This document shows positions 29,726 to 35,460 of a stretch of 64,000 bases of DNA, one piece after another (within the stretch, counting starts at the first letter, position 1; each line of letters starts with the position of its first letter). The notes beneath the pieces were generated by a model. That model was not told the origin of the DNA, searched no databases, and saw nothing but the letters and a program-made list of their open reading frames with translations. Source of the stretch: Escherichia coli (GTDB lineage: Bacteria; Pseudomonadota; Gammaproteobacteria; Enterobacterales; Enterobacteriaceae); assembly GCF_044647545.1 (NCBI RefSeq), contig NZ_CP172818.1; one strand, 5' to 3'. The position numbers and the translations under genes are program-made.

Positions 29726-30008
29726 GCCATTATGTCTCCTGCCGTAATCCGATGCTTTTGTCGGTCGCTGTTGTTTATTTTTTTTGGTAAAAAAATGTTA
29801 TACATTTGTTGCGTATCATTATGCAACCTTAACCATGAATTTAGTTAGCAGGAAAATGGTTATTGAGGAGCTTAAGGATAAATTTCTGGTAAGGAGGACA
29901 CGTATGGAAGTAGGCAAGTTGGGGAAACCGTATCCGTTGCTGAATCTGGCATATGTGGGAGTATAAGACGCGCAGCATCGCATCAGGCATTTTTTTCTGC
30001 ACCAATGC

Positions 30009-30035
30009 AAAAAGGCCATCCTGACGGATGGCCTT
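30009..30035 (-). terminator. rRNA operon terminator (T1-like)
   Basis: Stem GGCCATCC / GGATGGCC, 4-nt loop, T-run on minus strand, 13 nt past the 5S 3' end. Confidence 0.75.
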
Positions 30036-30047
30036 CTGCTTAATTTG

Positions 30048-30167
30048 ATGCCTGGCAGTTCCCTACTCTCGCATGGGGAGACCCCACACTACCATCGGCG
30101 CTACGGCGTTTCACTTCTGAGTTCGGCATGGGGTCAGGTGGGACCACCGCGCTAAGGCCGCCAGGCA
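30048..30167 (-). rRNA. rrfG: 5S ribosomal RNA
   Basis: Exactly 120 nt; reverse complement begins TGCCTGGCGGC and ends CAGGCAT. Confidence 0.97.
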
Positions 30168-30259
30168 AATTCTGTTTCATCAGACCGCTTCTGCGTTCTG
30201 ATTTAATCTGTATCAGGCTGAAAATCTTCTCTCTTCCGCCAAAACATCTTCGGCGTTGT

Positions 30260-33163
30260 AAGGTTAAGCCTCACGGTTCATTAGTACCGGTTAGCTCAAC
30301 GCATCGCTGCGCTTACACACCCGGCCTATCAACGTCGTCGTCTTCAACGTTCCTTCAGGACTCTCAAGGAGTCAGGGAGAACTCATCTCGGGGCAAGTTT
30401 CGTGCTTAGATGCTTTCAGCACTTATCTCTTCCGCATTTAGCTACCGGGCAGTGCCATTGGCATGACAACCCGAACACCAGTGATGCGTCCACTCCGGTC
30501 CTCTCGTACTAGGAGCAGCCCCCCTCAGTTCTCCAGCGCCCACGGCAGATAGGGACCGAACTGTCTCACGACGTTCTAAACCCAGCTCGCGTACCACTTT
30601 AAATGGCGAACAGCCATACCCTTGGGACCTACTTCAGCCCCAGGATGTGATGAGCCGACATCGAGGTGCCAAACACCGCCGTCGATATGAACTCTTGGGC
30701 GGTATCAGCCTGTTATCCCCGGAGTACCTTTTATCCGTTGAGCGATGGCCCTTCCATTCAGAACCACCGGATCACTATGACCTGCTTTCGCACCTGCTCG
30801 CGCCGTCACGCTCGCAGTCAAGCTGGCTTATGCCATTGCACTAACCTCCTGATGTCCGACCAGGATTAGCCAACCTTCGTGCTCCTCCGTTACTCTTTAG
30901 GAGGAGACCGCCCCAGTCAAACTACCCACCAGACACTGTCCGCAACCCCGATCAGGGGCCAACGTTAGAACATCAAACATTAAAGGGTGGTATTTCAAGG
31001 CCGGCTCCATGCAGACTGGCGTCCACACTTCAAAGCCTCCCACCTATCCTACACATCAAGGCTCAATGTTCAGTGTCAAGCTATAGTAAAGGTTCACGGG
31101 GTCTTTCCGTCTTGCCGCGGGTACACTGCATCTTCACAGCGAGTTCAATTTCACTGAGTCTCGGGTGGAGACAGCCTGGCCATCATTACGCCATTCGTGC
31201 AGGTCGGAACTTACCCGACAAGGAATTTCGCTACCTTAGGACCGTTATAGTTACGGCCGCCGTTTACCGGGGCTTCGATCAAGAGCTTCGCGTTACCGCT
31301 AACCCCATCAATTAACCTTCCGGCACCGGGCAGGCGTCACACCGTATACGTCCACTTTCGTGTTTGCACAGTGCTGTGTTTTTAATAAACAGTTGCAGCC
31401 AGCTGGTATCTTCGACTGATTTCAGCTCCATCCGCAAGGGACTTCACCTACATATCAGCGTGCCTTCTCCCGAAGTTACGGCACCATTTTGCCTAGTTCC
31501 TTCACCCGAGTTCTCTCAAGCGCCTTGGTATTCTCTACCTGACCACCTGTGTCGGTTTGGGGTACGATTTGATGTTACCTGATGCTTAGAGGCTTTTCCT
31601 GGAAGCAGGGCATTTGTTGCTTCAGCACCGTAGTGCCTCGTCATCACGCCTCAGCCTTGATTTTCCGGATTTGCCTGGAAAACCAGCCTACACGCTTAAA
31701 CCGGGACAACCGTCGCCCGGCCAACATAGCCTTCTCCGTCCCCCCTTCGCAGTAACACCAAGTACAGGAATATTAACCTGTTTCCCATCGACTACGCCTT
31801 TCGGCCTCGCCTTAGGGGTCGACTCACCCTGCCCCGATTAACGTTGGACAGGAACCCTTGGTCTTCCGGCGAGCGGGCTTTTCACCCGCTTTATCGTTAC
31901 TTATGTCAGCATTCGCACTTCTGATACCTCCAGCATACCTCACAGTACACCTTCACAGGCTTACAGAACGCTCCCCTACCCAACAACACATAGTGTCGCT
32001 GCCGCAGCTTCGGTGCATGGTTTAGCCCCGTTACATCTTCCGCGCAGGCCGACTCGACCAGTGAGCTATTACGCTTTCTTTAAATGATGGCTGCTTCTAA
32101 GCCAACATCCTGGCTGTCTGGGCCTTCCCACATCGTTTCCCACTTAACCATGACTTTGGGACCTTAGCTGGCGGTCTGGGTTGTTTCCCTCTTCACGACG
32201 GACGTTAGCACCCGCCGTGTGTCTCCCGTGATAACATTCTCCGGTATTCGCAGTTTGCATCGGGTTGGTAAGTCGGGATGACCCCCTTGCCGAAACAGTG
32301 CTCTACCCCCGGAGATGAATTCACGAGGCGCTACCTAAATAGCTTTCGGGGAGAACCAGCTATCTCCCGGTTTGATTGGCCTTTCACCCCCAGCCACAAG
32401 TCATCCGCTAATTTTTCAACATTAGTCGGTTCGGTCCTCCAGTTAGTGTTACCCAACCTTCAACCTGCCCATGGCTAGATCACCGGGTTTCGGGTCTATA
32501 CCCTGCAACTTAACGCCCAGTTAAGACTCGGTTTCCCTTCGGCTCCCCTATTCGGTTAACCTTGCTACAGAATATAAGTCGCTGACCCATTATACAAAAG
32601 GTACGCAGTCACCCCATTAAGAGGCTCCCACTGCTTGTACGTACACGGTTTCAGGTTCTTTTTCACTCCCCTCGCCGGGGTTCTTTTCGCCTTTCCCTCA
32701 CGGTACTGGTTCACTATCGGTCAGTCAGGAGTATTTAGCCTTGGAGGATGGTCCCCCCATATTCAGACAGGATACCACGTGTCCCGCCCTACTCATCGAG
32801 CTCACAGTATGTGCATTTTTGTGTACGGGGCTGTCACCCTGTATCGCGCGCCTTTCCAGACGCTTCCACTAACACACACACTGATTCAGGCTCTGGGCTG
32901 CTCCCCGTTCGCTCGCCGCTACTGGGGGAATCTCGGTTGATTTCTTTTCCTCGGGGTACTTAGATGTTTCAGTTCCCCCGGTTCGCCTCATTAACCTATG
33001 GATTCAGTTAATGATAGTGTGTCGAAACACACTGGGTTTCCCCATTCGGAAATCGCCGGTTATAACGGTTCATATCACCTTACCGACGCTTATCGCAGAT
33101 TAGCACGTCCTTCATCGCCTCTGACTGCCAAGGCATCCACCGTGTACGCTTAGTCGCTTAACC
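30260..33163 (-). rRNA. rrlG: 23S ribosomal RNA
   Basis: Exactly 2904 nt from GGTTAAGCGACTAAGCGTACACGG (5') to AACCGTGAGGCTTAACCTT (3') on the minus strand; track ORFs inside are not coding. Confidence 0.97.
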
Positions 33164-33356
33164 TCACAACCCGAAGATGTTTCTTTCGACTCATCATCGT
33201 GTTGCGAAAATTTGAGAGACTCACGAACAACTTTCGTTGTTCAGTGTTTCAATTTTCAGCTTGATCCAGATTTTTAAAGAGCAAATATCTCAAACATCAC
33301 CCGAAGATGAGCTTTGAGATATTAAGGCAGGTGACTTTCACTCACAAACCAGCAAG

Positions 33357-33432
33357 TGGCGTCCCCTAGGGGATTCGAACCCCTGTTACCGCCGTGAAAG
33401 GGCGGTGTCCTGGGCCTCTAGACGAAGGGGAC
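33357..33432 (-). tRNA. gltW: tRNA-Glu (anticodon UUC) in the 16S-23S spacer
   Basis: 76 nt; reverse complement reads GTCCCCTTCGTCTAGAGGCCCAGGACACCGCCCTTTCACGGCGGTAACAGGGGTTCGAATCCCCTAGGGGACGCCA. Confidence 0.97.
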
Positions 33433-35049: not shown

Positions 35050-35180
35050 AAAAGTTTGATGCTCAAAGAATTAAACTTCGTAATGAATTACGTGTTCACT
35101 CTTGAGACTTGGTATTCATTTTTCGTCTTGCGACGTTAAGAATCCGTATCTTCGAGTGCCCACACAGATTGTCTGATAAA

Positions 35181-35193
35181 TTGTTAAAGAGCA
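35181..35193 (-). promoter_or_regulatory. rrn leader boxA antitermination element
   Basis: Minus strand reads TGCTCTTTAACAA, the canonical rrn boxA. Confidence 0.7.
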
Positions 35194-35230
35194 GTGCCGC
35201 TTCGCTTTTTCTCAGCGGCGCGGGGTGTGC

Positions 35231-35258
35231 ATAATACGCTTTCCCGCTACAGAGTCAA
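35231..35258 (-). promoter_or_regulatory. rRNA operon promoter P2
   Basis: Minus strand TTGACT, 16-nt spacer, TATTAT. Confidence 0.7.
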
Positions 35259-35349
35259 GCATTTATTTTTGCTTTCTCTGCCGGAGTTCTCAGGAGAACC
35301 CCGCTGACCCGGCGGCGTGCTTGCCGTTGTTCCGTGTCAGTGGTGGCGC

Positions 35350-35377
35350 ATTATAGGGAGTTATTCCGGCCTGACAA
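35350..35377 (-). promoter_or_regulatory. rRNA operon promoter P1
   Basis: Minus strand TTGTCA, 16-nt spacer, TATAAT, GC-rich discriminator GCGCCACC; AT-rich UP-like tract upstream. Confidence 0.75.
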
Positions 35378-35460
35378 GAGGAAAATATAAAAACTTTATC
35401 GTTCGCTCATTTTTCAGGCAAAACATCTTAAATATAGTCTTTCCCGTCTAACTTATAGAC

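Follow-up and report, generated by a model that had tools for sequence, protein, structure and literature searches.

A complete ribosomal RNA operon with a tRNA-Glu spacer at the rrnG locus of an Escherichia coli chromosome

Genes and signals of the operon

The 64,000-nucleotide (nt) stretch of Escherichia coli DNA analysed here (contig NZ_CP172818.1 of assembly GCF_044647545.1, hereafter the window) carries a ribosomal RNA (rRNA) operon in which the genes for 16S rRNA, tRNA-Glu, 23S rRNA and 5S rRNA follow one another in that order, all on the minus strand, as identified with Rfam covariance models and ARAGORN. The 16S rRNA gene (rrsG, 33508-35049) has a length of 1542 nt and matches model SSU_rRNA_bacteria with 1575.7 bits over model positions 1-1533 of 1533, while the 23S rRNA gene (rrlG, 30260-33163) has a length of 2904 nt and matches LSU_rRNA_bacteria with 2874.2 bits over positions 1-2925 of 2925. 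Between them lies a tRNA-Glu gene (gltW, 33357-33432) of 76 nt, to which ARAGORN assigns the anticodon UUC and which the Rfam tRNA model matches at 33360-33432 on the minus strand (60.1 bits). The ends of the 5S rRNA gene (rrfG, 30048-30167, 120 nt) were fixed by alignment to rrfG of E. coli K-12, the Rfam 5S_rRNA match covering 30050-30165 on the minus strand (93.2 bits). The 16S, 23S and 5S matches span their entire covariance models, and all of the RNA matches lie far above the Rfam gathering scores, these being 50 for SSU, 50 for LSU and 38 for 5S. An earlier reading of the window, made from its letters and a list of open reading frames (ORFs) and referred to here as the sequence-only reading, had given these four minus-strand genes exact canonical lengths and had proposed covariance models as the check. 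The lengths are indeed those of the K-12 genes, and every RNA gene scores well over threshold.

Upstream of the 16S rRNA gene, a promoter scan identified two minus-strand promoters, P1 (35350-35377; TTGTCA, a 16-nt spacer and TATAAT; 11 of 12 consensus matches) and P2 (35231-35258; TTGACT, a 16-nt spacer and TATTAT; 10 of 12). P2 sits 119 bp downstream of P1, and this distance is approximately 120 bp in all seven E. coli rrn operons (PMC4696680). Directly 3′ of P1 there is the G+C-rich sequence GCGCCACC, a candidate P1 discriminator, and the predicted transcription start is near 35341. On its upstream side, the −35 hexamer of P1 is abutted by an A+T-rich stretch, gataaagtttttatattttcctc (35378-35401, minus strand), in the position of an UP element; by analogy with rrn P1 promoters in general (PMC4696680) it is a putative UP element, and on the same analogy the upstream activating (Fis) region of P1 probably extends toward the clpB terminator, past 35400, where the sequence-only reading had ended the operon.

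The leader contains the elements of an antitermination signal, all on the minus strand. These are a boxB-like hairpin (35196-35219; GCCGCT...AGCGGC, read by eye), a boxA, TGCTCTTTAACAA (35181-35193), which is an exact match with a chance expectation of 0, and the boxC-like sequence TGTGTGGG (35159-35166), which we take to be the boxC motif and which lies within the 5′ arm of the 16S processing stem. The same order, boxB-boxA-boxC, is described for the rrnG nut-like RNA, in which boxA is the binding site for NusB/NusE and boxC falls in the duplex cut by RNase III, the position of TGTGTGGG being consistent with the latter (PMC6614801). A second boxA, TGCTCTTTAAAAA (33271-33283, minus strand; chance expectation 0), is located in the spacer between tRNA-Glu and 23S.

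The intergenic spacers are short. The 16S-tRNA spacer (33433-33507, 75 nt) contains the 3′ arm of the 16S processing stem (33453-33508), the 5′ arm of which is a 56-nt segment of the leader (35133-35188) with 75% complementarity to it, the two arms being separated by 1624 nt. The tRNA-23S spacer (33164-33356, 193 nt) contains a hairpin at 33284-33323, the second boxA and the 5′ arms of the 23S stems, as well as a match to the Rfam family StyR-44 (33171-33279, 123.9 bits). In the 23S-5S spacer (30168-30259, 92 nt) lie the 3′ arms of the 23S stems, so that the 23S rRNA gene is bracketed by two pairs of complementary segments, namely 33252-33272 with 30205-30225 (21 nt, 90%) and 33156-33170 with 30255-30269 (15 nt, 93%). 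This complementarity of the flanks would give processing stems around both 16S and 23S, and RNase III is predicted to cut them.

An intrinsic terminator (30007-30035, minus strand) starts 13 nt after 5S and consists of the arms AAGGCCATCC and GGATGGCCTT about the loop GTCA, followed by a T-run. It folds with −24.9 kcal/mol (z-score −5.5), and none of 200 shuffled sequences folded as well. The P1 and P2 promoters, boxA and terminator of the sequence-only reading are thus all borne out, boxA by two copies. Seven weak sites which a simple terminator scan placed within the RNA genes were discounted, as shuffled sequences yield no fewer. Between the terminator and kgtP no second terminator or structure was recognised, 29930-30010 folding no better than shuffled sequences (z-score −1.17), and a pattern for the repetitive extragenic palindromic (REP) element had no match there. 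Neither a distal tRNA nor a second 5S was found downstream with ARAGORN and Rfam. The rrnG operon is one of the four rrn operons with a single terminator (PMC8144298).

Assignment to rrnG and predicted expression

The operon sits between kgtP and clpB and is oriented toward kgtP, and both flanks, annotated as these two genes, are 100% identical to E. coli chromosomes. The annotation of K-12 MG1655 has kgtP, rrfG, rrlG, gltW, rrsG and clpB in the same order and orientation as the window, and the layout recurs in two RefSeq genomes of the window's lineage. The sequence beyond 5S points the same way, with the 68 nt that follow the gene showing 8 mismatches to K-12 rrnG, as against 22-28 mismatches plus 14-22 gap columns to rrnB, rrnC and rrnE of K-12. 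By its flanks and sequence, the locus is E. coli rrnG, as the sequence-only reading had proposed from kgtP and clpB. That reading also held the tRNA-Glu spacer to fit rrnG. The tRNA is present; however, it is not diagnostic, and the subtype of the spacer is unlike that of K-12 rrnG. As tRNA-Glu also occurs in rrnB, rrnC and rrnE (MG1655 annotation; PMC8144298, which lists rrnB, rrnC, rrnE and rrnG as the tRNA-Glu operons), it is the flanks and not the spacer that are decisive. A different list, with tRNA-Glu in rrnB, rrnC, rrnD and rrnG and Ile/Ala in rrnA, rrnE and rrnH (PMC4696680), was set aside, as MG1655 has gltV in rrnE; the text in question appears to have exchanged D and E.

Promoter use, antitermination and the processing enzymes are described here after established knowledge of E. 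coli rrn operons, from which the following course of expression may be proposed. Transcription from P1 and P2, as tandem sigma-70 promoters, would proceed leftward on the minus strand and yield one long precursor. The boxB-boxA-boxC elements of the leader, together with the spacer boxA, would load an antitermination complex of Nus factors and SuhB, and RNA polymerase would therefore be able to read through 5 kb of untranslated sequence. Long-range pairing of the 16S and 23S flanks would form the stems to be cut by RNase III, RNase P and other nucleases would free tRNA-Glu and 5S, and transcription would be expected to end at the single strong hairpin terminator 13 nt past 5S.

Internal reading frames, small deletions and alternative explanations

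A considerable number of ORFs overlap the RNA genes, namely 12 when the minimum length is set to 60 amino acids (aa), 19 at 50 aa and 39 at 40 aa. The sequence-only reading had counted about 20 track ORFs between 30.1 and 34.5 kb, placed them inside rRNA and advised that they be ignored. At the 50-aa cut-off its count holds, with 19 ORFs lying between 30128 and 34457, but three more (53, 53 and 59 aa) are found beyond 34.5 kb within 16S, at 34547-35033. Likewise, although the ORFs do overlap RNA genes, the one of 93 aa at 30128-30409 covers 5S, the 23S-5S spacer and the 3′ end of 23S and so is not confined to one rRNA. The advice itself was sound. The ten longest ORFs belong to no Pfam family, the sole hit (E = 0.094) failing the cut-off; three annotations, from PGAP and the curated MG1655 record, have no coding sequence within the operon; and the substitutions relative to K-12 follow RNA pairing and not codons.

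That at least one internal ORF should nevertheless be a true protein-coding gene overlapping rRNA, such as that of 121 aa at 33608-33973 on the minus strand or that of 101 aa at 32635-32940 on the plus strand, may be given only the slightest of chances. The ORFs exist, are fairly long for random sequence and would be conserved wherever the rRNA is conserved. In addition, the sense strand of 23S contains a pentapeptide mini-ORF, GTGCGAATGCTGACATAA (GTG CGA ATG CTG ACA TAA; 31901-31918, minus strand), an exact match to what we take to be the sequence of the erythromycin-resistance "E-peptide". This peptide, reportedly the subject of work by Tenson, DeBlasio and Mankin in 1996, is not known to be active unless expressed from rRNA fragments. 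The mini-ORF is part of 23S and no separate gene, and it leaves the advice on masking unchanged. Against coding stand not only the missing Pfam matches and annotations but also the paired, hairpin-keeping changes, which are the signature of selection on RNA and not on codons. Furthermore, the majority of the internal ORFs run opposite to a unit that is transcribed at a very high level, and inside the RNA genes the promoter scan gave no promoter-like site on the plus strand. The ORFs are reading frames open by chance, in RNA genes that are conserved and poor in stop codons, and they are non-coding.

A search of 5,426 complete E. coli genomes found none that is identical across the whole operon. 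Four of these genomes (ECONIH1, WP4-S18-ESBL-09, EC11 and MS14385) tie as best matches with equal bit score, coverage and span, each covering the 5.8-kb query in full, 99.8% identical to it over a span that exceeds it by 10 bp. Direct alignment to ECONIH1 places this difference between 33435 and 33436, 3 nt upstream of tRNA-Glu, where the window is without the 10 bp GAAGCAGACT. Judged by eye, a small hairpin, GTCTTGC-GAA-GCAGAC, loses its 3′ half through the deletion. In the same genomes, a probe of 64 nt spanning the junction had no full-length match of at least 90% identity; BLAST bridged the gap with this probe, and its matches were read by identity and not by coverage for that reason. Those of at least 95% identity were all partial and covered the tRNA part. 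A shorter spacer in Nissle 1917 (CP007799.1) was not used as an example of natural variation, as the adjoining 23S carries the flag "prediction is too short" in that record.

Two further small deletions relative to ECONIH1 were found in the window. One of 3 bp in srmB (18386-18404) converts the stop TAA to TAT, by which the ORF has 449 instead of 444 codons and runs five further into the terminator hairpin; its junction is absent from all 5,410 complete E. coli genomes searched. The other, of 2 bp (CA) at 50212-50213, one base past the ffh stop, is shared with BS-01 alone among the other complete genomes. The comparison with ECONIH1, over 44 kb of the window, thus gives three small deletions and 0 mismatches. 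A set of several small deletions with no single-nucleotide polymorphism (SNP) is explained by errors of assembly or sequencing no less well than by real mutations, and the 10-bp deletion may be either an error of assembly or a private mutation. It is very unlikely that it is a genuine recent mutation in which loss of half of a hairpin beside the RNase P site has a measurable effect on how tRNA-Glu or the 3′ end of 16S from this operon matures. The five bases directly upstream of the tRNA and the entire 16S stem arm are intact, and therefore no effect on processing would be expected.

Such a deletion could also be a symptom of a larger fault, in which a different rrn copy, or a chimera arising from assembly collapse of the seven near-identical repeats, was misplaced at the rrnG site. 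Nothing observed contradicts the assignment of the operon to rrnG as a complete and intact copy, and two limits apply. The spacer is not of the subtype found in K-12 rrnG, being instead of the short subtype of K-12 rrnC and rrnE, and the simple terminator scan flagged neither the rrnG nor the clpB terminator, the former having been found by folding. The miss is probably explained by extension of the stem with G-U/A-U pairs, which uses up the T-run. To the spacer subtype may be added the absence of the 10-bp deletion from every other complete genome, and the two additional deletions, of which one is private and the other recurs in just one more genome, which in the company of no SNPs fit sequence errors. 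However, the four independent complete genomes named above score identically at the same locus, and it follows that the short spacer is native to rrnG of this lineage; the 10-bp gap is the only difference in the direct alignment to ECONIH1; and leader and terminator are continuous with the unique flanks. ECONIH1, one of these four, and FDAARGOS_497 carry the short spacer at rrnG, from which the subtype is seen as lineage variation, and because spacer subtypes are common to several operons the difference has no bearing on the identity of the locus. A misplaced or chimeric copy is consequently judged highly improbable, even if the 10-bp gap itself could still stem from an assembly error. We regard it as practically certain that the window holds a complete, intact E. 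coli rrnG operon in a strain of the ECONIH1 / ST648-named group, and that its internal ORFs are non-coding.

The operon is already known and annotated, and is a textbook example of its kind. The practical value of the analysis lies in labelling the 5.4-kb block as rrnG and in masking the 19-22 ORFs of at least 50 aa from protein sets, rRNA-derived ORFs being a known source of spurious database proteins. In addition, small deletions without SNPs relative to the closest genome are a warning that the source assembly may hold small indel errors, one of which would lengthen SrmB by five residues.

The wider window and comparison with known copies

Other features were observed in the window outside the operon. 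The small ORF yfiS (20 codons, 29904-29966, plus strand), placed between kgtP and rrfG by the MG1655 annotation, is conserved, both of its differences from K-12 being synonymous. ECONIH1 and FDAARGOS_497 have IS4 between bamD and raiA, whereas the window (approximately 40800-40813) is without this element and is continuous through the bamD terminator. Five further Rfam matches exceed the gathering score, all of them in their expected K-12 neighbourhoods, namely ohsC (4678-4755), the rncO leader (8167-8381), AsrC, an antisense RNA of rseC (11165-11996), RyfD upstream of clpB (38047-38185) and the Phe leader (41491-41616). Toward the right end (59372-61179), the transfer-messenger RNA gene ssrA (59372-59734) has, 167 bp beyond its end, an ORF of 425 aa for a tyrosine integrase, with a Phage_integrase domain (E = 8.5e-38) as well as arm-binding and central domains. 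The integrase is the mark of an island or prophage whose insertion site is ssrA; the two ORFs that come after it (358 and 93 aa) have no Pfam match.

The closest known copies are rrnG of the four tying genomes, of which that of ECONIH1 (NZ_CP009859.1) is identical base for base over the 5.8 kb of the operon and flanks, save for the one 10-bp gap. With rrnG of K-12 MG1655 (rrsG-gltW-rrlG-rrfG, b2591-b2588) the operon shares its flanks, strand, gene order and gene lengths. The hexamers, spacer and discriminator of P1 are all identical in the two, as are both hexamers of P2, with 1 change in the spacer between the latter. The leader boxA is the same, gltW is identical and the single terminator is homologous. 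The terminator loop (30022-30025) has GTCA in the window and the reverse complement, TGAC, in K-12 rrnG, as if the palindromic hairpin had been flipped.

The rRNA genes themselves differ in detail. There are 18 substitutions in 16S compared with rrsG of K-12, and 10-18 substitutions with 0 indels across rrsB, rrsC, rrsE and rrsG, while 23S differs from that of K-12 rrnG by 25 substitutions and 4 gap columns. The substitutions cluster in hairpins and are mostly paired, such that the helices are retained. In 16S h6, for example, GCAGC/GCUGC of K-12 is GAAGC/GCUUC in the window, and at 23S 2205-2215 ACCCG/CGGGU is GCCCC/GGGGU; paired changes of this type are seen in 16S h6, h11 and h33 and in four 23S hairpins. 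Position 13 of 5S (window 30155) is U here and G in all four Glu-type operons of K-12, and a G/U difference between E. coli strains at this position was reportedly noted in the original 5S sequencing work.

The 16S-23S spacer is 344 nt long in the window and 431 nt long in K-12 rrnG, where an extra insert of approximately 86 nt precedes the tRNA and the sequence just upstream of 23S is different. A literature search on spacer heterogeneity returned nothing relevant. Closest to the spacer of the window are those of K-12 rrnC and rrnE (85 nt, tRNA-Glu, 193 nt), with 6 mismatches to that of the window, which is 10 nt shorter. However, rrnC and rrnE occupy other chromosomal sites and have different terminators, and rrnC has distal tRNA genes as well.

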